Source: Candidatus Hodarchaeota archaeon (lineage in GTDB: Archaea; Asgardarchaeota; Heimdallarchaeia; Hodarchaeales; Hodarchaeaceae). Taken from it: a DNA stretch of 64,000 nucleotides. Positions 12,587-64,000 of the stretch are shown piece after piece. The translations under genes were made by a program, and so were the position numbers. Numbering within the stretch: the stretch's first letter is position 1; each line of letters begins with the position of its first letter. The notes under the pieces were generated by a model. That model ran no database searches. It worked only from the letters and a program-made list of their open reading frames with translations, and was not told the DNA's origin. The stretch is from NCBI GenBank assembly GCA_029856365.1, contig JAHQWW010000003.1, positions 32,001 to 96,000 of the forward strand, in the 5' to 3' direction.

Positions 12587-14893
12587 ATGAGCGACGATAA
12601 TGATTCAAAATTACTACTACTAAAAGTTGCAGAGGCGAACCAGGGGGACGTGGGACGAGGATTGGTTCGCATAGATTATTCCATCATGCGGGAAAATGGA
12701 TTAGAAACAGGAGATATAATTGAAATCTCTAGTGAGAGAGCTAATGGAAGAAAAACAGGTGCCTTGGTCATACCTGGAAGACGAGAAGATCGGGGGAAAA
12801 ATATCATCAGGATGGATGGGTTAATCAGAGGGAATGTGGGGACAAGTTTAGGTGAAACTGTTCGAATTCGGCAAATCAAAAAACGAGAAGCAAATCGTAT
12901 CACTATAGCACCTGCAGAAGAACGTATTAGGCTTTTAGTTAGATCAGAAATTATTCGTGAACGTTTACAGAATCATCCAGTCTCACGTGGTGATTTACTG
13001 GTTATAACGGGGCAAATCCGTAAGATTCCTCCCTCTGGAGGATCCAGTGGAACAGGAATGGATGATTTCATCTCTCGTTTCTTCGGCGCATCAAGTCCCG
13101 TATCTTTGGGTGAGATTAAAGTTGTGGTCGTTGCAACGGACCCAGAAGGCATTGTTACGGTAGGAGATACAACAGAAGTCAATATTGTTGAAGAAGCTCC
13201 TAAGGATCTTCGAATGATGCCACGAGTGACATACGAGGATATTGGTGGCCTATCGGAGGAAATTAAGCGTGTGAGAGAGATGATCGAGCTTCCGATGAAA
13301 CATCCCGAACTCTTTGAAAGGTTAGGGATCGATCCTCCAAAAGGTGTCTTATTACATGGACCTCCAGGTACAGGAAAAACATTACTTGCCAAAGCTGTTG
13401 CAAATGAATCAGGAGTTAATTTCGTATCAATTGCTGGGCCCGAAATTATGTCAAAATTTTATGGAGAGAGTGAACAACGAATTCGTGAGATTTTTGAACA
13501 AGCTGAGAAAGACGCCCCAAGTATTATTTTTATAGATGAATTAGATTCAATCGCAGTAAAAAGGGAAGAAGTCACTGGAGAAGTAGAAAGACGAGTTGTT
13601 GCTCAATTGTTGGCCTTGATGGATGGTTTAAAGAGTCGTGGTAAAGTTATAGTTATTGGGGCAACGAACCGGCCTAATGCACTCGATCCTGCCTTGCGAA
13701 GACCTGGACGATTTGACAGAGAAATTGAAATTGGGGTTCCAGATAGAAATGGGCGTTATGAAGTCTTGTTGGTTCATACAAGAGGAATGCCTATTGATGA
13801 AGATGTCGATTTAGAAGAATATGCTGCTAAAACACATGGTTTTGTTGGAGCAGACATCGCTGCTCTTACAAAAGAAGCTGCAATGCATACTCTTCGAAAA
13901 GTTTTACCAAAAATTGATTTTGATAAACCTCTCACGCCAGAAATTCTTTCAAAATTAGTTGTCTCGAAAGAAAATTTCGATGAAGCACTTAAAATTACAG
14001 AGCCCTCAGCTATGCGCGAAGTACTGTTGGAGATTCCAAATATTCACTGGAAAGATATTGGGGGTCTTGAAGGGGTGAAACAACAACTTATTGAAGCTGT
14101 AGAATGGCCCATTATTTATCCTGAGATGTTTAAGCGCCATGGTATTACCCCTCCCCATGGTATTCTTCTTTATGGTCCACCTGGGACTGGAAAGACCCTC
14201 TTAGCCAAAGCTGTTGCTACTGAAAGCCAAGCAAATTTCATAGCAATTCGTGGGCCTGAGTTTCTGTCAAAATGGGTTGGTGAAAGTGAAAAAGCTGTTC
14301 GTGAAGTTTTTAGGAAAGCTAAACAAGCATCTCCTTCTATTATATTTTTAGACGAGCTTGATGCCATTGCTCCTCGCCGAGGAGTATTTGCTGGTGGTAG
14401 CCACGTCACGGAGAGTGTTGTGAACCAAATATTATCATTACTAGATGGTTTAGAGAATCTTCGTGATGTTGTTGTACTAGGTGCAAGTAATCGACCAGAT
14501 ATGATCGACCCAGCTCTCCTCAGACCAGGGAGGTTTGATCGATTATTATTGGTGAAGCCTCCTGATACTGAATCTCGAGAAAAAATCCTACAGATTCATA
14601 CAAATGCAATGAGGCTGGCGTTGGATGTCAACATTTCCCAACTTGCTAGTGACTTAGATGGATATGTAGGTGCAGATATAGCTGCAATTTGCCGTGAAGC
14701 TGTTATGATTGCACTCCGTGAAGATTTAAACACGGAATTAATAGAAAAACGTCATTTTTTTGAAGCAAAAAAAGCCATTCATCCCAGCATTAGTGATAAG
14801 ATTATCAAAGAATTTGAAGAATTAGAACGTAAGCTTTTAGGGAAATCGGAAATTGGACGGAAAGATGTATTAGGATTGAAAGATTATCTCTGA
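12587..14893 (+). CDS. cdc48: Cdc48/VCP-family AAA+ ATPase
   Basis: N-domain plus two AAA modules (GPPGTGKT twice, FIDELD/FLDELD, RPGRFDR twice). Confidence 0.98.
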
Positions 14894-52231: not shown

Positions 52232-53470
52232 ATGTATATTATTCGAAGAATACTCCGTATAGATCCTCAACGAGACTTCTCAAAAGGACGAGAGGCGTTT
52301 GATCAAGGAAATTACGCCTTAGCTTCTAAAATTTTTTTAAAGACTCATAAACAATTTGATACTATCGATATGAAAATCATTTCTATAGAGAATGCGGCTA
52401 TAGCAGCAGAGTATGCTGATATGTTTGATAAATCGCTAGAACTTTATTATCGTACTGTTCTCATCAAATTACATGTAGAGAAATCTCCCAAGGAGGTTTT
52501 ACTAGATATTGATAAGGCCATACATATGGCACGACAATGTGAAAAACCCCCTATTCCTATAAGTAAATTAATCTTTATGAAATTCTTGATTTTCCTTTCC
52601 CAAAAGGATTTTGATCAATTAAACTCTTTTTATAACAAATTGAAGTTTGAAATTTCAGATAATTATAGTAATGCGATTGAAAAAACTTGGATTCTGATTC
52701 ATTCAACTGATACTTATGAAAAAAAAGAACTGCTTCCACAGGTGGATCTTCCAAAAGAATTTTATAGCATTTCGGAAGCTGCTGAACGAGTTATGCAAAG
52801 GTGTTCATTATGTGACATCGTGTTGAATAAAATTGATCAATCTGAGCTTATAGAAAAAGGTACCAGTTTTTCACTGTCTGTAACATTAACAGCATATGCA
52901 CCTTTATCTGTTCAGAAGATTAATCTCAAAACTGGAACAAGAGGAAGGATCTTGACCTCATCAGCTCCTGAATTTCCCTTAAGATTAAGTACAGGTGAAA
53001 ATTATTCGATTATATTCTCTCTTATTCCCAATTTGCCAGGGGAGTGGTTGTTAGGTCCGTTGTTTCTGGTTTATTCTATTCCATCTGAGCCAGGAGAATA
53101 TCCAGTGATATCAAAACCCATTTCTCTCATGGTGGAAGATGCACCACCCGCTTTAAGTTTATCAATGGAATCAGAGACAATTGAAGAAGATCTGGAATAC
53201 TTGATAACTATTTTTGCAGAGAATGTTGGGAAAACAACCCTTCAAGAAGTGAAAATTGTTACAGAGATTCCAGAGGGAATTAAAATTCATGAGGGAACCA
53301 AAGAGAAACATATCAGCACTTTAGGAGAAGGAGAGTTGTTTCAATATGAAATTCGTGTTCGGTTTGAGCTAGATCGAACCCATTTTTCAGGACATATAGT
53401 TAAAGTATCTGGATACATTAAGGACAATCAAAGACTTTCAAAAGCTTCTCTCAGACTGGGAGACAATTAG
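52232..53470 (+). CDS. TPR-like solenoid + two Ig-like beta-sandwich domains
   Basis: Helical N-half; beta-strand pattern 'LSTGENYSIIFSLIP..PGEWLLGP' and 'ENVG...LGEGE'. Confidence 0.7.
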   Translation: MYIIRRILRIDPQRDFSKGREAFDQGNYALASKIFLKTHKQFDTIDMKIISIENAAIAAEYADMFDKSLELYYRTVLIKLHVEKSPKEVLLDIDKAIHMARQCEKPPIPISKLIFMKFLIFLSQKDFDQLNSFYNKLKFEISDNYSNAIEKTWILIHSTDTYEKKELLPQVDLPKEFYSISEAAERVMQRCSLCDIVLNKIDQSELIEKGTSFSLSVTLTAYAPLSVQKINLKTGTRGRILTSSAPEFPLRLSTGENYSIIFSLIPNLPGEWLLGPLFLVYSIPSEPGEYPVISKPISLMVEDAPPALSLSMESETIEEDLEYLITIFAENVGKTTLQEVKIVTEIPEGIKIHEGTKEKHISTLGEGELFQYEIRVRFELDRTHFSGHIVKVSGYIKDNQRLSKASLRLGDN

Positions 53471-53484
53471 TTTATTTCAGTTGA

Positions 53485-55647
53485 TTAACTAGATCGAAGG
53501 CCAAGTCTTGCAATAAAGGTAGAATAATAATCAAAACAATCGACCGATTCTTTTTCATCTAAAGTGATTGAAGAGTGGACAATCCTGTTCCTTAAATTTC
53601 GGAAACGAGCGATCTTCCTATCACTAGGTAGGTCGAAACCCCGTTTACGAAGGCTAGCAACTTGAAACTGAAAATCAGGTTTAGAATGAGTAGGATCGAA
53701 TAATAGTTGTTGAAATCGAGTCGTTAGAAGATTTTTGACTGACGCATCAGCCTTAATCACAAATAATTCAAAATTATTTTCCTTGAAAGCATGTTTAGCT
53801 TGATTCCACAAAACTCGAACATAATTTATGTTTTTCAATGCTTGATCGGGATCCAAAATCTGAGGAGGATATTCTTTATTTGAGTTTTCCTTATAGTTTT
53901 TTAAAATATAATTCATCCTATTAATGACTTGGCTGTAACTAATAAAAGTAGTTACATTTATAAAAATCACTGTGATTACGAGTAATGCTGTTGGAATTGT
54001 CAATACAATGAATAATACTGTGAAACTAGGAATATAAATTGGGAGAAGATGGGATGTAAAAAGAATATAACCTAGAAGATTCAGAAGATCGTAAATCAGA
54101 AATCCAATAAAAATATAGAAAATCCATTCGATTTTTCGGTGCAATCGTTTTGATATCACAAGTGTTTCTGTTTCAGAGGATTCCATGAAACTAAGTAATC
54201 CAAATGTTTTGAATGGGATATTGGTCACTCGGATTAGAATTGACTCGTTAGGAACCTCCTTAATATTGAAGATTCCACGAAGATTACTTTCTAAATATTT
54301 GTAGGTATCTCCCAACGAAGCAGGAATAGTCCATTGATTGATTCGAAACCATTTTCCTTTTGAATCTAAATACATTAGGTATGCTGGTAATGCAGCCAGA
54401 ATAATAATGGAAAGAAGGATCGAGGGGAGAGTCCATATGAAGGGTTTCGGTAGACGATATTCAAAATGAATGTAGAACAGTCCTTTAGTTTCTGTTTTAG
54501 GATAAATTATTAAATAATATTTCCCCTCGTCCAATAACTTGGTAATATTAATCTCGCCATCTTGGGTTGATTGGTGCTCATATGCAGTATGAATTGGATC
54601 TTGAAGTCCCTTGTCTTTGATCTCGATGTGTGCAGAATCAAGGATTTTATTAATCGTTGGATTTTCTGCAAAAACACGAATGTTAACCTTTGATCTACTT
54701 GTATTCACCATAAACCAGAAATAATATTTCTTGAATACATAATTATGAACCTCACGAACAGAAATAGTTTGGTTATAAGGTATTTTTCCTGCTGTAAGGT
54801 AATTAAAAAAGTTTTGATGAACAGAGGAGGATATATTATACAGCCCTGTATATTGTGTTTTGTGTGAGATTTCAATAATATAGTCATCTTGCTCAGGAGG
54901 ATTCCAAGAAAAGTTATACAATCCGAATATTTCAGAATGTTTTTTTTCCACGGCGGTAGGATTTCCTCTTCCCGATTCCTTTGGGTATATTATTACCTCC
55001 ACTTCTTCAAGTACGTTAGATGTTGTTTCTCTTAAAAAAACGGTACAATTTTGGTTTTCCTCCAATGAAACCTTCCAATATTGGATTTCATGATCTATAG
55101 TGAAATTAGCAACCCTAAATGATTTATTAAGGGAGATTGCAGATTCAACGCTATACCCTATACTAGGCATACTAGCCAATATTTCATAAGAAAAATCCCC
55201 GCTTTTCTCCACTCTAGTATCATTCACTTGTATTGTCCAGTTACCTGTTCTTGAAGCAATCCAGGATCCCAAGTATTTATCAGAAGGGAAAAGATTTATT
55301 CTTTTTGGATCTAGTGTAGCTTGTGCACCTGAAGGATCATAAAGCGTGACTTGAAAATCAGATTTGGAGAAAGGTGGATTAGGATCGATTGAAAAATATA
55401 CTATTTGTCTTGAATTAACAGTATTAAGAGTCCAATTATGCTGTGTAGACTTATTTGTGAAATAATGAGTTTGAGGAATTCCATGCCTCAGTATGGTTAC
55501 GTTTTGGAAATTTGTCGATTTCTTCACTTTATCAAGTAAGAACATAGAAGAGGAACTAGTAGACACTGAAGAGAAATGAAAAATTAAGAGATTAAGTGTA
55601 ATAATTGCAACGAGAAGCATAACATGCTTTTGGGGTATAGCTTTCAT
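53485..55647 (-). CDS. signal peptide + extracellular PPC-like repeats + 3 TM + cytoplasmic HEPN domain
   Basis: N-terminal hydrophobic segment; 'LYDPSG', 'GNWTIQV' and 'GKYYLII' repeats; TM helices; C-terminal 'RNRIVH' (RX4H). Confidence 0.8.
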   Translation of the reverse strand: MKAIPQKHVMLLVAIITLNLLIFHFSSVSTSSSSMFLLDKVKKSTNFQNVTILRHGIPQTHYFTNKSTQHNWTLNTVNSRQIVYFSIDPNPPFSKSDFQVTLYDPSGAQATLDPKRINLFPSDKYLGSWIASRTGNWTIQVNDTRVEKSGDFSYEILASMPSIGYSVESAISLNKSFRVANFTIDHEIQYWKVSLEENQNCTVFLRETTSNVLEEVEVIIYPKESGRGNPTAVEKKHSEIFGLYNFSWNPPEQDDYIIEISHKTQYTGLYNISSSVHQNFFNYLTAGKIPYNQTISVREVHNYVFKKYYFWFMVNTSRSKVNIRVFAENPTINKILDSAHIEIKDKGLQDPIHTAYEHQSTQDGEINITKLLDEGKYYLIIYPKTETKGLFYIHFEYRLPKPFIWTLPSILLSIIILAALPAYLMYLDSKGKWFRINQWTIPASLGDTYKYLESNLRGIFNIKEVPNESILIRVTNIPFKTFGLLSFMESSETETLVISKRLHRKIEWIFYIFIGFLIYDLLNLLGYILFTSHLLPIYIPSFTVLFIVLTIPTALLVITVIFINVTTFISYSQVINRMNYILKNYKENSNKEYPPQILDPDQALKNINYVRVLWNQAKHAFKENNFELFVIKADASVKNLLTTRFQQLLFDPTHSKPDFQFQVASLRKRGFDLPSDRKIARFRNLRNRIVHSSITLDEKESVDCFDYYSTFIARLGLRSS

Positions 55648-55939: not shown

Positions 55940-56581
55940 TTGAATCAAAATATTCGGATTTTCAAAAAACGCCTCCAAATTTCTCAAAAAAAGTGGAATA
56001 CGGTTCAGGGCCATTCATTAAGAACAGTTAATACCATCTTAACCATCCTTTCGAGATTAAATTTGACTCAACGTCCTGATGCTTTTTCAAAGGCACTTTT
56101 AACTAGATTTACTGACATTCCAGAACGGTTAGCTTATCATCTTGCAGAATTGATAAATAAAAGTATTATAGATTTATATTCTTATATTGAGCAATTCTCC
56201 GATATTGTTCGTGAAATGAGAAAAATAGAGAAAGTTTTTCGGCAAGATTTTTCTCTTATGGCTAGAAAACAAGTGATAGGAGGAAATGATGCATGGCCAC
56301 ATGATCTCGAGATCATAGAACAAGCTGAAAGAACTTTCCAAGAAATAATCGATATGTATGAGACTGAGCTTACACTTAGAAAGCAATTAATAAAAGAAAT
56401 ACAAGAATCAATTTCTTTACAGCCCTTAATGATCACTGTTTACTTGGTTCTCTGGACATCAGAAGTTTATATCGAACCTACTAGGATTCATGAACTCATT
56501 GAAGAATTTACACATGTAGAGAAAGTTTGTGAGCGCGTGTTCCAACAAGATTCTTATAATTCCGTTCCAAAATCTCGATGA
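55940..56581 (+). CDS. CINP/C1orf109-like helical protein
   Basis: 'KKWNTVQ', 'FTDIPERL', 'AWP', 'IIDMYETELTLRKQL', 'YLVLWTSEVYIE'. Confidence 0.7.
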   Translation: MNQNIRIFKKRLQISQKKWNTVQGHSLRTVNTILTILSRLNLTQRPDAFSKALLTRFTDIPERLAYHLAELINKSIIDLYSYIEQFSDIVREMRKIEKVFRQDFSLMARKQVIGGNDAWPHDLEIIEQAERTFQEIIDMYETELTLRKQLIKEIQESISLQPLMITVYLVLWTSEVYIEPTRIHELIEEFTHVEKVCERVFQQDSYNSVPKSR

Positions 56582-56599: not shown

Positions 56600-58033
56600 T
56601 TAGCTTGCATGGAATTTAGTTAATTTTAGAATGTTATCTATTGATCCATTATGAAACCCTTTCACTAGCAAGCCCTGAATTTTATCGTTAACAGCGTATT
56701 CGGGTTCACCATTCTCTAAAAATTTCTTTACTAAATTCATTGACACAGTTAAACTATCTCGAGCATTCTTTTCCAAACCTGCAGGACAAATTGCAACACC
56801 TCGTAATTGAGAATTTTGTGGCCCTACTTGCGATATAAAGACACATCGTTTATCTCCTGCAGTTAAGTGGTCAGGCGTATGCCCAATTAAGTCTGAACTC
56901 ATAGATTGAATAGCAGAAAACAAACCTGTGTACAAACAAACTTCTTGTCCAGCTGGACGATGACTCGCGAATAAAGGAAGACCACCATCATCGAAAATAT
57001 ATATCTCTGAATCTGAGAATATCTTATTCAACACGTTAAAACGTTCATCCTCGTCGGAGGGCTCCGATGGTACTGATTCTATAGAATTTCTTTTGATTGA
57101 AGTTTCACATGAAGCAAGTGCTGGAACCACAGAAGTTAAAAAATCATTTGAAGCAGTATTGGGCATAATATTTCCTATTGTGTTAGAGTCTGTCAGAAAA
57201 AGAACAACATTATAACCTGAAATGCTAGAATCAACCACATTAGAAAAAACTATCTCAAATTCTTTTCCAAATGTGTTTGCTATTTGTTTGGATGTGTTGT
57301 TCATGGTTTTAAGATTAAGAGATTTAATTGAAGTCACAGATAAAAATATCATCTCCAGACTTTCGAGTTTTTCAGGAAGCGTTGTAACTAGATTCTCACC
57401 AACTTGGTCAATAGCGCCGTTTATTGCGTCTTCTAAGATCATTGAAGATGAAATTCCATAATACATACATTTAGAGTCGCCAAAAATACGAATTAAATTG
57501 GGAAATGAAATTCCAAATCCAGATGACGGTGTAAGACTTGATATCAAACTATTTAATAGAACTAAAAAATTCTGTCGACCTTTATCGAGAGTACAATCAA
57601 AATGAAAATAACATTCTCCAAAAAAATCCCTTTGATTCGAGTGAAAACCTTTTCCTGTATCAATAAATATAGGAACAATACCAGAAAAATCGATAGAAGC
57701 CATGATTGCTCCTAAGACTCTGAAAATTCCTTCTTCGGAAGAATTGAATATGAATATCAAGAAAAAAGAATTTAAAAGGCTGCATATTTGCGGTATCATC
57801 GTTTCAGAGTCAAGAACAACTACTTGATCACATATATTAGGCGTGAAGGATGTTCCAGTGGTTATAAGTAGCAGAGGTAAGCGAGACTCACTTTTTGTGG
57901 CTAAGTAATCTTTCAATACTTCTAATTCAGTTACCAAATCCTTGCCAACATATACGATTTTCCCACGAGGTCGGAAATATTCCAATATTGAATTTCTATC
58001 AGATCGTGAGCTCAAAGCTGATATCTCTTGCAT
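56600..58033 (-). CDS. inactive FtsZ-like domain fused to C-terminal longin-like domain
   Basis: FtsZ C-terminal-domain pattern at about residues 165-285; no GGGTG(S/T)G; C-terminal 'IYIFDDGGLPLF...LYTGLFSAIQSMS'. Confidence 0.68.
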   Translation of the reverse strand: MQEISALSSRSDRNSILEYFRPRGKIVYVGKDLVTELEVLKDYLATKSESRLPLLLITTGTSFTPNICDQVVVLDSETMIPQICSLLNSFFLIFIFNSSEEGIFRVLGAIMASIDFSGIVPIFIDTGKGFHSNQRDFFGECYFHFDCTLDKGRQNFLVLLNSLISSLTPSSGFGISFPNLIRIFGDSKCMYYGISSSMILEDAINGAIDQVGENLVTTLPEKLESLEMIFLSVTSIKSLNLKTMNNTSKQIANTFGKEFEIVFSNVVDSSISGYNVVLFLTDSNTIGNIMPNTASNDFLTSVVPALASCETSIKRNSIESVPSEPSDEDERFNVLNKIFSDSEIYIFDDGGLPLFASHRPAGQEVCLYTGLFSAIQSMSSDLIGHTPDHLTAGDKRCVFISQVGPQNSQLRGVAICPAGLEKNARDSLTVSMNLVKKFLENGEPEYAVNDKIQGLLVKGFHNGSIDNILKLTKFHAS

Positions 58034-58318: not shown

Positions 58319-60244
58319 ATGACATTTGAAATCGAAAAATGTGAAGGCTGGGGGCGATTGGGACTAGCTTTTGGAAAAGAAGGTTTTATCACACCAAATA
58401 TAGTAATACCTTGTTTTTTTAACAATAATTCTTCTTCTCAACAAAATTCTCTTTTGGACTTATTAAAATTCCAGGAAAACAATGCTTCTTTAACCTCTAG
58501 AAATAATGTAATAATGGATAACATAGATTTCGACTATTTTCCCTCATGTTTCATTTATCCTTCTTTACAAATGCAAGGAAAGTCTCTAAAGGAGGTTACT
58601 TGCTTTGAGGATATGTTCCCCGTGGACATAAACCAAAGCTCTAATCTAAAAGCTTCGTATCACCTTATCCCATGGGATTTACCTACAATATATTTGAATC
58701 GATATGATAAATACATACAAACTCTTAATAAAATCGAGGTACCAGAGTTAGATGATAAAATTAAGTTAATGTTAAATGTTCCATTCACACCTGAAATCCT
58801 AGAAACAGAGCTCCCACCTCTAAGGCCATCTGTTATTTCTGTGGTAAGTTTGGGAGATATTTCATCATTATTAACACATCCAAAACTTTTAATCAGATAT
58901 TTGATTCGTATAAAGTCATGGTTACCTTCTAATAAGATGCTATACGCCCCTGCAGTTCCTTCAAGTTATATTCCAATTTTGGTGTACCTAGGTATTGATT
59001 TATTTGACTTATTAATTACAGAAATGTACTCAGCGAACCCTGATCAGCAATTGGATCTAATTCTTGAACAGCAGAAGAGTAGAAAGGCTTTTTCACAGAT
59101 TCTGGATCTCACTAGAAAAGCTATAGAAACCTACAAATTAAGGGATTTAACAAGAATTTTCGCGAATTCCTATCCTTCTTTAAAGACATTATTAAGAATT
59201 AGTGATAAACAGATCCCACTTGAAGAAGGAACCCCGATTTATGGGTCTCGAACCCTCTACTGCACTGATGAAACTGATTTTACCCGTCCAGAAGTGACAC
59301 GCTTTCGTGAACGAGTACAAACTCGTTATTTTCCTCCCTCTCACACTACTGGGATCATTTTCCTCCCTTGCTCCGCTAAAAAGCCATATTCAAAATCAAA
59401 ATCACATAATATTTTTTCAAAAGTAATTCGTCAAAATTTGAAGAAAAAACGATTTTCAGTTGGAGAAGTAATTCTAACAAGCCCTTTAGGTGTTGTACCG
59501 CGAGAACTTGAGTACTCTTTTCCAGCAGCCCATTATGATATTCCAGTTATAGGAGAATGGAGTCAAATTGAGAAAAAACATCTTGAAGAAGATCTCGTAT
59601 ATTTTTTAAGTAAAATCAAACCTTCTATTCCGCTTGTGGGATATGTTAAAGGAATTGAACGTGATATATTGAAAAAAGTGTGTAAACTACATAATCGTTC
59701 GATATACCTCATAACTCAAGATACAACATCATTATATTCAAAAGAAGCTCTCAAAGAATTTTCAGCAATTCTCCAAGAGATTTGGCTAAACATTTCCTAT
59801 AAGCCTAAAATCCCTAATCGACTCATGTTCCTAAGAGCAATTGCTGATTTTCAATTCGGAAAAGGGATTGGACAAGTTCTTATTCCTGATCATGTCAAAA
59901 TTTACGGTCGAAAAGAACTTGGTATCAGAGTTCAGCTTAATAACAAACATCTACTCACATTTCGTCCAGAAACAGGTTATCTCACCTTATCCCTTACTGC
60001 AGGAAAACTGTTATTAGATTACAGTTGTAACTTAGTGACATTTGACGGTCAGAAGATCATTGGTTCTACAATATTCTCAAAAGCTATAATCATGGCAGAT
60101 CCAGAGATACGTCAAAATGATGAAGTTCTTATTACAGATAGAAATGGGGAATTATTAGCTGTTGGTATTGCACATTTACCAGGAAAACTTTTAGTTGAAA
60201 TGAAAAGGGGAAAAGGGGTTACTATTCGGCAAAAGGTGAATTAA
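58319..60244 (+). CDS. arcS: archaeosine synthase subunit alpha (TGT-like, DUF5591, PUA)
   Basis: 'LPCSAKKPYSKSKSH', 'TSPLGVVPRELE..FPAAHYDIPV.GEW', 'ADFQFG', PUA domain. Confidence 0.93.
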   Translation: MTFEIEKCEGWGRLGLAFGKEGFITPNIVIPCFFNNNSSSQQNSLLDLLKFQENNASLTSRNNVIMDNIDFDYFPSCFIYPSLQMQGKSLKEVTCFEDMFPVDINQSSNLKASYHLIPWDLPTIYLNRYDKYIQTLNKIEVPELDDKIKLMLNVPFTPEILETELPPLRPSVISVVSLGDISSLLTHPKLLIRYLIRIKSWLPSNKMLYAPAVPSSYIPILVYLGIDLFDLLITEMYSANPDQQLDLILEQQKSRKAFSQILDLTRKAIETYKLRDLTRIFANSYPSLKTLLRISDKQIPLEEGTPIYGSRTLYCTDETDFTRPEVTRFRERVQTRYFPPSHTTGIIFLPCSAKKPYSKSKSHNIFSKVIRQNLKKKRFSVGEVILTSPLGVVPRELEYSFPAAHYDIPVIGEWSQIEKKHLEEDLVYFLSKIKPSIPLVGYVKGIERDILKKVCKLHNRSIYLITQDTTSLYSKEALKEFSAILQEIWLNISYKPKIPNRLMFLRAIADFQFGKGIGQVLIPDHVKIYGRKELGIRVQLNNKHLLTFRPETGYLTLSLTAGKLLLDYSCNLVTFDGQKIIGSTIFSKAIIMADPEIRQNDEVLITDRNGELLAVGIAHLPGKLLVEMKRGKGVTIRQKVN

Positions 60245-60245
60245 G

Positions 60246-61343
60246 ATGCCTCAAGAAAGAAACCAGCTTTTAGCTTCAACGGTTTTTAATTTACGTCAAG
60301 AATACTTAAGTAAACGACCTCCAGATTTTCAACCAAAATTATGGAGTACTAAAACTGAAACAAGAAAAAGTATTGTAATAACTATGGTAATCCCAACAAG
60401 AGGATGTAGTTGGGCTTTTTCAGATAGTGGAGGATGTTCCGTTTGTGGTTATGTAAACGATTCCTCTTATGATCAAGTTATTCCGACCCAAAAAATTCTT
60501 GAGGAAATTAATCTTTCCTTGAGTCAGGTCGACTCTAGTAAGCCCATTGAATATAAGTTGTATAATTCAGGGAGTTTTTTTGACGAAAATGACGTTCCAC
60601 AGAGATTACGATCACAAATTATTGATCTAATTAGGAAAACAAATGGAATTCTTAAATTAAGTGTTGAAAGTAGGCCAGAATATCTCATAAATAATCAAAA
60701 AGCTATCAAAAAAGTAAAAGAAATGCTAGAACCCATTAAACTAGAAATTGGCGTGGGGATTGAAAGCTCAAATAACGCTATCATAAGAGACTGTTGGAAT
60801 AAAGGATTTTCTGTTGAAGATTATCAGAGAAGCGTACAAATAACTCGAACACTGGGTATTCGGATTAAAAGTTATATTCTAATAAAACCTCCCTTTTTAA
60901 CTGAGGTAGAGGCAATAATTGATGCAATAAAGACAGCTTGTGACACAGTGGAATTTGGAACTGATGTTATTTCATTCAATCCCTGTAATATCCAAAAAGG
61001 AACACTAGTCAACCATTTACACAAACAAGACCGTTATCAACCTCCTTGGATATGGTCTGTGTTATATATTGTAAAAACAATTCGAAAAAAGTATCCAAAT
61101 GTCGAGATAATTTGCGAACCGACTGCAGGAGGAAAGCACCGAGGAACTCATAATTGCGGGAAATGCGATAAAACCGTCATTGACCTTGTTGACAAGATTA
61201 TTAATAAGAAAAAGATACCTGATGATCTTTCTACAATCTGCTCCTGTTTTTTAAAATGGAGAATCCTAGTAAAAACCCCAATTGAGATATTTCGCTCAAG
61301 AAATCTGTCACGGTTGCGACGATTTGATCCTCTAAATGAGTAA
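60246..61343 (+). CDS. raSEA: archaeosine biosynthesis radical SAM enzyme
   Basis: 'TRGCSW...GGCSVCGY', 'NSGSFFD..DVP', 'ESRPE', 'KPPFLTE', 'YQPPWIWS', 'RGTHNCG.CD'; 1 bp after arcS. Confidence 0.93.
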   Translation: MPQERNQLLASTVFNLRQEYLSKRPPDFQPKLWSTKTETRKSIVITMVIPTRGCSWAFSDSGGCSVCGYVNDSSYDQVIPTQKILEEINLSLSQVDSSKPIEYKLYNSGSFFDENDVPQRLRSQIIDLIRKTNGILKLSVESRPEYLINNQKAIKKVKEMLEPIKLEIGVGIESSNNAIIRDCWNKGFSVEDYQRSVQITRTLGIRIKSYILIKPPFLTEVEAIIDAIKTACDTVEFGTDVISFNPCNIQKGTLVNHLHKQDRYQPPWIWSVLYIVKTIRKKYPNVEIICEPTAGGKHRGTHNCGKCDKTVIDLVDKIINKKKIPDDLSTICSCFLKWRILVKTPIEIFRSRNLSRLRRFDPLNE

Positions 61344-61349
61344 ATACAT

Positions 61350-62510
61350 TTATTTCAAAGAAGAAAGAGTTTTTAACAGCTCATCATTGTCCTCAAAAAC
61401 ATAATCCTTGTCTATTAACTTCTCAAGTTCATATAAAACTTTTTTAGATGTTTTATTCAGCTTCTTGGGAAATTTCACGATAATTCCTATGTGCATATCT
61501 CCTTTCTGGGAGCTATTTGGATATGGAGCACCTTTATTACGAAGTGTTATGATCTTTCCATGTTCTGTTCCTGGATCTATTTTAATTGTTTCTTTCCCAT
61601 CTATAGTGGGAACTTCAACCTTTGTACCTAGAATAGCATCAATAAAACTGATGGGATATTCTATAAGAATATCAGAGCCATTTCTATGGAAAAAAGGATG
61701 TTCTTCTACTGAAACAACGAGGTATAGATCTCCTGATGGTCCTCCTAGTTCTCCTGGCCGGCCTTCTCCCTGAATAACGACTCGCATACCGCTATCTACA
61801 CCTGCAGGAATTTCAGCATTGACATTTCGAAATTGCTTTACCTTTCCAATACCATTACACGTATTACATTCTGCACCTTTGGGAAGACTTTTGCCCTCTC
61901 CGTGACATGTTGGGCACGTAGATATATTAACAATTTGACCAAACGCGGAACGTTGAATCCTACGGATTTCTCCAGTTCCTTGACATGTGTCACAATTTTT
62001 CAATGATTTTCCTTCTTTTACTTTCATACCATGGCAAGTTGGACACTGTGCCCAATTAGGAACTTTTATTTTCTTTTTTAATCCTTTCATTGCTTCATCA
62101 AAGGATATTTCCAGATTTAAACGCACATCCTGTCCTCGTCTTGCTCTAGGACGTGATGTTCGGGCACGGGAACCCCCACCAAAGGCACTGAATAAATCAT
62201 CGAAGATTCCAAAGCCACCAAAGAGATCATCAAAACTAATCCCAGAGAAATCTCTAAATGGGGTTCCTGACAATCCTTCATGACCAAAACGATCATAAGT
62301 AGCACGTTTGTCGTTATCTGAAAGAACTTCAAACGCTTCAGCTACTTCTTTAAATTTTTCTTCAGCATTTGGATCATCAGGTTTCATGTCAGGATGATAT
62401 TTCCTAGCGAGATTACGAAATGCCTTCTTTATTGTTTTTAAATCAGCATCTCTAGAAACTCCCAAGACTTCGTAATAATCTCTTCTAATCTTCTCGCTCA
62501 GCACTTTCAC
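61350..62510 (-). CDS. dnaJ: chaperone DnaJ
   Basis: J domain with HPD, G/F region, four CxxCxG motifs. Confidence 0.97.
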
Positions 62511-62543: not shown

Positions 62544-64000
62544 TTAATCATCGTCTACTATTTCATAATCAACATCAACAACTTCAGAGTCATCGGCTCC
62601 ACTTGGGGCGCCTTGAAAACCAGACGCACCCGCCTGCTGAGCTTGGGTCTGAGCCTGTTGAGCTGTTTGTTGTGCATATAGTTTTTGAGCGAGTTCGTGA
62701 GTAATTCTTTCTAGTTCCTCACTTTCTTTTTTAATTTCAGAGACATTACTTCCTGTCAACGCTTTTTTCACGACTTCAATCTGGTTTTCAGCTCTTGAAC
62801 GTAAATTAGTATCAACTTGGGCTCCTAAATCTTTTATGAGTTTCTCTGATTGATAAACTAATGAATCTGCTTTATTCCGAGTCTCTGCTTCTTCAAGGCG
62901 CTTCTCATCTTCTTCTTCGTAATTAGCTGCCTCATGAACCATCCGTTCAAAATCCTTCTTGGTGAGCCCGCTTTCACTCTTTATAGTAATTTTTTGTTCG
63001 TTTCCAGTCCCAAGATCCTTTGCAGAGACGTTGACAATCCCGTTTGCATCGATATCAAAAGTTACTTCTATTTGTGGAACTCCTCGGGGAGCAGGAGGAA
63101 TACCAACAAGTTGAAACCTACCTAAAGTTATGTTATTTGATGCCATTTTACGCTCACCTTGTAATACGTGAACTTCGACAGATGGTTGATTATCTGCTGC
63201 TGTAGAGAATATTTGACTTTTTTTAGTGGGAATAGTAGTATTTCTTTCAATTAATCTTGTAAAGACTCCGCCTAATGTCTCTATACCAAGTGAAAGAGGA
63301 GTTACATCAAGTAGCAACACATCCTTCACGTCTCCCATTAAGATTCCAGCCTGAATAGCAGCACCTAAAGCAACACACTCATCAGGATTGATTTCTTTAG
63401 TTAACTCTTTTTTATAGTAGGTTTTTAACGCAGATTGAACAGCAGGTACTCTAGTTGAACCACCAACAAGTAGGATTTTATCAATATCGGAAGGTTGTAG
63501 TTTCGCGTCCTGCATTGCTTGGTGAGTAGGCCCCATAGCAGCCTCGATTAGATCAGCTATCATTATCTCGAATTTAGAACGTGATAATGTAAGGTTTAGA
63601 TGCTTTGGGCCAGTATTATCAGCATAAATATATGGTAAGTTAATATCAGCAGATGTTTTTTGTGATAGTTCAATCTTGGCTTGCTCAGCTGCATCCTTTA
63701 AACGCTGCAATGCCATTGGATCTTTTGAGAGATCTAATCCGGTTTGATTCTTGAATTCTTCAACCATCCAATCCATTATTCTTTGATCAAAATCATCCCC
63801 TCCTAGGCGATTATTGCCCGAAGTAGCCTTTACCTCGAAAACACCTTCTGATAACTCCAAAATCGAGACATCAAATGTGCCTCCTCCTAAATCGAAGACC
63901 AAAACAGTTTGTTCTTCCTCTTTATCAATTCCATAAGCCAATGAGGCACTTGTTGGCTCATTGATAATACGAAGTACCTCCATTCCTGCAATTCGTCCAG
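62544..64000 (-). CDS. dnaK: chaperone DnaK (5' part outside window)
   Basis: 'IINEPT', 'DLGGGTFD', 'VGGSTR', '[10 protein letters not shown]', 'TAADNQ'. Confidence 0.98.

Follow-up and report, generated by a model that had tools for sequence, protein, structure and literature searches.

We conclude, with moderate confidence, that the gene studied here belongs, as a single-copy gene of Asgard archaea, to the CINP/C1orf109 family of small helical adaptors and encodes one of the published 'CINP-like' proteins (CA109-like in Pfam), and that its product may act along the lines of the adaptor model set out below. In humans, the SPATA5-SPATA5L1 ATPase is capped by CINP and C1orf109; this ATPase serves the maturation of the 60S ribosomal subunit, and mutations in it occur in neurodevelopmental disease. 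The Asgard CINP-like family as such is already known from publication: Koestlbacher et al. described CINP homologues ('CINPL') in five major Asgard clades (bioRxiv 10.1101/2024.07.03.601958; Nat Microbiol 2026, PMC12962969) and recovered eukaryotic CINP as the sister group of Hodarchaeales with 99% ultrafast bootstrap (PMC12962969; bioRxiv 10.1101/2024.07.03.601958). The present gene falls in the same family and the same clade and in itself differs in nothing from theirs; a preliminary description of this DNA, made from the sequence alone, had correctly pointed to a report of CINP-like proteins in Hodarchaeales (PMC12962969). In that work C1orf109 is named only in the title of a reference (PMC12962969), and the preprint mentions neither Cdc48 nor AAA ATPases (bioRxiv 10.1101/2024.07.03.601958); a link to C1orf109 or to an ATPase partner thus lies outside its discussion.

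The gene lies in a 64,000-nucleotide stretch of a contig from a Candidatus Hodarchaeota archaeon, referred to here as the window:

55940..56581, + strand: coding sequence of a 213-residue, all-helical CINP/C1orf109-like protein (P0001), supported by the open reading frame, Pfam PF15011, the family profile, the structural model, Foldseek and VIA-align.

The reading frame comprises 213 codons on the + strand, opening with a TTG at 55940 and ending in a TGA at 56579-56581, exactly as first delimited. The TTG start is credible because homologues carry a methionine at the same aligned position (e.g. MNQNIR...). Its nearest protein relatives, at 95-98% identity, are 'hypothetical protein' entries in GenBank from MAGs named Heimdallarchaeota, Hodarchaeales or Promethearchaeota, which marks the source as an Asgard archaeon of Hodarchaeales type. 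The frame is a real, conserved gene. The window has a G+C content of 32-39%, and the genome that carries it amounts to 4.24 Mb in 204 contigs, with a completeness of 83.6%.

Sequence comparison establishes homology of the archaeal protein to CINP. In a search of the PDB, Asgard family profiles (A1 and A2, built from 22 or 44 relatives) recovered human CINP with 45-48.6 bits and E-values of 8e-11 to 6.4e-12 in a colinear match along the full length (profile positions 6-179 on chain positions 8-179), with the match that follows CINP scoring more than 25 bits lower. The likeness to CINP proposed earlier is thereby upheld over the full length of the human protein (E 6.4e-12). Human C1orf109, despite having chains in the same PDB library, was not reached at E <= 10 by either archaeal profile, and by sequence CINP is the closer relative of the two. 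The connection to C1orf109 comes from a Pfam model and from the predicted fold. The sole significant Pfam family for the 213-residue protein is PF15011, 'Ribosome biogenesis protein C1orf109-like' (E 7.8e-11; 42.5 bits against a curated gathering threshold of 27 bits), where residues 10-156 align to profile positions 7-152 of 161. PF15011 is also matched by 21 of 22 diverse Asgard relatives, and most relatives already bear this label among the precomputed Pfam hits of the protein database; a search of NCBIfam with the 213-residue protein gave nothing meaningful. Outside Asgard archaea the family did not surface among the hits inspected: a single-sequence HMMER search over 1.84 billion representatives gave 20 matches, and in the 10 that were looked up all the named ones are Asgard, while a profile search gave 240 matches, the best 120 of which are all Asgard.

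The AlphaFold2 model of the protein, computed from a 44-sequence alignment, is all-helical (pLDDT 90.4, pTM 0.83), with predicted helices at residues 2-43, 51-56, 60-114, 119-156, 162-174 and 180-206. When this model was compared with the PDB by Foldseek, as the preliminary description had proposed, chains of CINP or C1orf109 took 9 of the 10 top places, the sole unrelated protein among them having a TM of ~0.3. The matches comprise CINP 8cih_A (E 6.5e-4, TM 0.66/0.73) and the further CINP chains 9lgo_I, 9gwj_B and 8rhn_C/D, as well as C1orf109 9gwj_A (E 3.5e-2, TM 0.58/0.61) and the further C1orf109 chains 9lgo_H and 8rhn_B; chains were assigned to either protein on the basis of the sequence search, in which the CINP chains are named, and of the titles of the PDB entries. 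The model thus points to a helical fold of ~200 residues common to the archaeal protein, CINP and C1orf109, at identities of 17-18% to human CINP (PDB 8cih, 9gwj_B, 8rhn_C, 9lgo_J) and 12-14% to human C1orf109/AIRIM (PDB 9gwj_A/C, 9lgo_H, 8rhn_B). The two human proteins are the best natural structural matches; de novo designed helical bundles equal CINP in Z, which means that the fold by itself proves little and is supporting rather than decisive, the decisive evidence of homology being the sequence profile and the Pfam score. Taken together, the dual resemblance to CINP and C1orf109 is real: the C1orf109-family side of it, also claimed from the outset, is borne out by a PF15011 score above the cut-off and by the place of C1orf109 among the two best natural structural matches.

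The two likenesses would map to different parts of the polypeptide:

56354..56476, + strand: codons 139-179, with the CINP-like motifs MYETEL...YL.LW..E.YIE, the most conserved part of the family (HMMER alignment, conservation).
56069..56131, + strand: codons 44-64, an ordered and conserved connector from helix 1 to helix 2 (S50, L54, F57, ERL), supported by conservation and a pLDDT of 89-93 and lying inside the PF15011 match.

HMMER aligned IIDMYETELTLRKQLIKEI with LLEMYRKELLLKRTVAKEL and YLVLWTSEVYIE with YLSMWLHQPYVE of human CINP; phmmer placed the archaeal MYETEL.LRK against CINP MYRKELLLKR, just as first described, and the family profile aligned the KKW...S...VN segment to CINP KWETLNDAGFTTANNI. 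The motifs that mark CINP are all present in these HMMER alignments, i.e. KW in helix 1, MYxxEL, and WxxxPYxE near the C-terminus. Each of W19, M139, E143, W172 and E175 is retained by 93% or more of the archaeal family (M139, E143 and W172 by 98%), and the mean over residues 175-179 is 3.4 bits. Conservation in the family is highest at W19, Q23 and S26 in helix 1, at S50, L54 and F57 in the connector that follows it, and at M139, E141, E143, Y168, L169, W172, E175 and E179 in the C-terminal part. The motif pairs first proposed with CINP were aligned by HMMER and lie at positions among the best conserved in the archaeal family; the exception is the pairing of AWP with TWP, which falls in the least conserved loop (1.27 bits) and is probably due to chance. 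The C-terminal WxxEPYIE motif of the archaeal protein is CINP-like and lies outside the Pfam match, which sets it apart from C1orf109 and PF15011. The connector is as conserved as the helices (2.09 bits versus 1.27-1.44 in the other loops), whereas the stretch of human CINP aligned to it is polar and non-matching. Its RFTDIPERL segment, with L54 kept in 91% and F57 in 89% of the family, lies inside the PF15011 match (residues 10-156), and the preliminary description proposed AFPDLKERL as its putative counterpart in human C1orf109.

Both regions would correspond to contacts in the eukaryotic complex. Human CINP and C1orf109 have five helices each and form a T-shaped heterodimer via the helix 1-2 loop of C1orf109 (PMC12019325, PMC11055677), the residues L63, L69 and L73 of which insert into CINP (PMC12019325, PMC11055677), and both proteins bind the N-domains of SPATA5/SPATA5L1 (PMC12019325, PMC11055677). 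Mutation of CINP L162, S181 and S184 breaks complex formation (PMC11055677); indexed on the HMMER alignment, these residues correspond to archaeal L146, V167 and V170, within the C-terminal motifs. The same pair is found in the plant OPENER complex as OPNR and OAP1 (PMC12332008), and its presence in both plants and animals indicates that the CINP/C1orf109 pair is old in eukaryotes.

The copy number of the gene differs from that of its eukaryotic counterparts. Our profile search of 300 Asgard genomes drawn evenly across the phylum found the family in 118, in agreement with the published spread over five major Asgard clades. The gene occurs in 19 of 20 genomes of the window's own family, in both genomes of a sister family, in 71 of 76 genomes of a large family (f11) that looks like Thorarchaeota by its protein names, in 17 of 19 and 4 of 4 genomes of two further families, and in three single genomes. 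The same search found it in none of the genomes of three other families of the same class (0/29, 0/11 and 0/11), and a large family that we guess may be Lokiarchaeia gave one very weak match in 68 genomes. There is effectively one copy per positive genome (118 of 118), three double matches being fragments or very weak, and the genome of the window itself has exactly one family gene. Where 55LCC and OPENER employ two paralogous adaptors as a heterodimer, each archaeal genome has one member of the family. A single copy in every positive genome fits an undivided, ancestor-like state of the CINP/C1orf109 pair and argues against a hidden second paralog, short of a very divergent one. Candidates for such a paralog beside the gene in two loci (L016 6926-7594 and L017 7050-7457) were ruled out by an hhalign probability below 1%.

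Four sizeable genes that flank the CINP-like gene in the window are the following:

52232-53470, + strand: gene for a 412-residue protein without a Pfam match at E <= 0.001.
53485-55647, - strand: gene for a 720-residue protein without a Pfam match at E <= 0.001.
56600-58033, - strand: gene for a 477-residue protein without a Pfam match at E <= 0.001.
60246-61343, + strand: gene for a 365-residue protein without a Pfam match at E <= 0.001.

The order of these four genes around the CINP-like gene is kept in other Hodarchaeales (loci L014 and L015). The window (58319-60244, +; 61350-62510, -; 62544-63983, -) also features an ArcS-like archaeosine-pathway gene (DUF5591, TGT_C2 and PUA domains) and then a DnaJ gene, after which DnaK and GrpE are expected from the synteny with L014; together these would make up a bacterial-type chaperone operon. 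Across 14 regions from nine family-level lineages, synteny of the CINP-like gene is confined to within families: none of the flanking genes recurs from one family to another, and there is no Cdc48 among them. Two closely related genomes, one carrying the label Thorarchaeota in GenBank and the other Lokiarchaeota, have the CINP-like gene on the same strand as a gene for an 824-residue DEAD/Helicase_C helicase and 92 bp downstream of it (L011 5435-7909 and L013 5433-7907), a pairing that was not recovered as conserved in the cross-family comparison. A family B DNA polymerase adjoins the gene in one locus.

The preliminary description had further proposed that the protein may partner an archaeal Cdc48. 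The Cdc48 it placed at 12587 is indeed encoded there: 12587-14893 (+) codes for an ATPase of the Cdc48 family that combines CDC48_N, CDC48_2 and a pair of AAA domains. This gene lies 43 kb from the CINP-like gene and is one of four two-ring Cdc48 paralogs (A, B, C and D) in the genome:

12587-14893, + strand: paralog A, the window's copy, 768 residues, its second N-subdomain bearing a Gly/Ser-rich insert of 30 residues.
G000:C36:52545-56261 (locus L008, outside the window): paralog B, 1238 residues, with a LAGLIDADG intein in D1.
G000:C183:3557-5758 and G000:C36:16632-18809: paralogs C and D, ordinary length, 733 and 725 residues.

The insert of paralog A spans about residues 149-178 and is absent from the other three paralogs; NTD2 of human SPATA5 also has an insertion. 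In paralog B the intein (Intein_splicing and LAGLIDADG_3) takes up about residues 288-766 and interrupts the D1 AAA domain, and among its orthologues in related MAGs both intein-free forms of 728-731 residues and intein-bearing forms of ~1235 residues occur. A Cdc48 paralog from an Asgard genome of another family (L031; G059:C4:19844-21592) has an in-frame TAA, which could mean that it is a pseudogene, that the sequence contains an error or that the codon is recoded.

To relate these paralogs to the adaptor we used a quick tree with SH-aLRT support of 32 Cdc48 sequences from 11 genomes, set up to compare five genomes that carry the adaptor gene with five that lack it. None of the four paralogs tracks the patchy distribution of the adaptor in this tree. 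Orthogroup B is present in all sampled genomes, carriers and non-carriers alike; the A type is present in families without the adaptor gene and absent from the sampled genome of the positive family f11; and the C/D group is mixed relative to adaptor presence. If the partner is a Cdc48, the universal B type alone is shared by every carrier and would be the candidate. An uncontrolled complex prediction for two copies of the protein with the N-domain of paralog B (residues 1-177), both supplied as alignments, gave a score of 0.21 against a mark of 0.32, a value that speaks neither for nor against binding. With neither a conserved Cdc48 neighbour nor a paralog of matching distribution, this part of the original proposal found no support, and the putative Cdc48 partnership is a bare analogy.

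The genome also bears on what the protein could act on. In eukaryotes, the client and docking features of 55LCC comprise a C-terminally tailed eL24 paralog of the Rlp24 type and the C-terminal extension of Nog1/GTPBP4, CINP binding residues 452-474 of GTPBP4 (PMC12019325); both features are absent from the archaeal genome. Its single eL24 is a 72-codon frame, no Rlp24-like eL24 paralog is present in the genome, and its Nog1 frame has 384 codons. Given that eL24 and Nog1 are both short here and an Rlp24-like paralog is missing, the archaeal client cannot be the eukaryotic one, and the role of the archaeal protein is not the release of Rlp24 in the eukaryotic manner. Human CINP works with C1orf109, whereas this genome lacks a gene for a C1orf109 partner and is likewise devoid of Rlp24 and of a long tail on Nog1.

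In the model that we favour, one polypeptide would keep both halves of the eukaryotic heterodimer contact, the ordered hydrophobic helix 1-2 connector acting as the C1orf109-like half (a 'knob') and the MYxxEL/YLxxW surface that would receive it as the CINP-like half (a 'socket'). We consider it slightly better than an even chance that the archaeal protein self-associates in this way instead of pairing with a paralog; purified human CINP and C1orf109 are each monomeric alone (PMC11055677), which means that self-association is not a given. The protein may further dock on the N-domains of a Cdc48-type AAA+ unfoldase and line the substrate entrance, a step proposed by analogy with 55LCC and plant OPENER, to which we give a little under one chance in three. 

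Several other explanations compete with this model. That unrelated coiled helical proteins have come to look alike by chance is a reading for which one might cite the phmmer E of 0.18 against the PDB and the 17-18% identity to CINP, but it is refuted by the full-length colinear profile match (E 6e-12) with the same invariant motifs, the Pfam score above cut-off and the 9 of 10 Foldseek places, leaving it a negligible probability. More substantial is the idea that the protein works without any AAA+ ATPase, as a helical scaffold in another process such as replication/repair or RNA metabolism, and that only eukaryotes recruited it to the SPATA5 lineage. A replication or repair role was the first proposal for CINP. 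Such a scaffold would agree with the lack of a Cdc48 link by neighbourhood or distribution, with the absence of the eukaryotic client features from the genome, and with the DEAD-family helicase 92 bp upstream in two related genomes and the family B DNA polymerase in one locus. Against this, the helicase and polymerase neighbours are not conserved across families, and the CINP motifs shared by archaea and human lie where the proteins of 55LCC contact one another, a sign that such an interaction is ancient; on balance we think this account rather unlikely, if the strongest of the competitors.

It is likewise conceivable, at a still lower probability of about one in five, that the protein is a plain CINP orthologue and that C1orf109 appeared later within eukaryotes, either as a duplicate of CINP or with some other origin. 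The likeness to C1orf109 would then reflect no more than a common helical fold and the permissiveness of the Pfam model, and the archaeal protein would say nothing special about the pair. The boldest form of our own model, in which both 55LCC adaptors go back to a single, still undivided Asgard polypeptide that self-assembles through knob and socket and covers the N-domain ring of an archaeal Cdc48 like a lid, appears to us just as improbable as that plain orthology.

An archaeal relative dates part of the SPATA5-SPATA5L1 machine to before the eukaryotes, a point that for CINP is already in the literature; the remaining interest is that one archaeal protein may stand for both adaptors and may already work with a Cdc48. 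To this the present analysis adds three points: the gene is invariably present in one copy, no natural structure matches its product better than the two human proteins do, and a partner is suggested neither by the genomic context nor by the way in which the Cdc48 paralogs are distributed. The archaeal protein is plausibly ancestor-like. Should the lid model prove true, a Cdc48-type unfoldase capped by an adaptor would predate the eukaryotes, and this adaptor would later have split into CINP and C1orf109 and specialised on the release of Rlp24.
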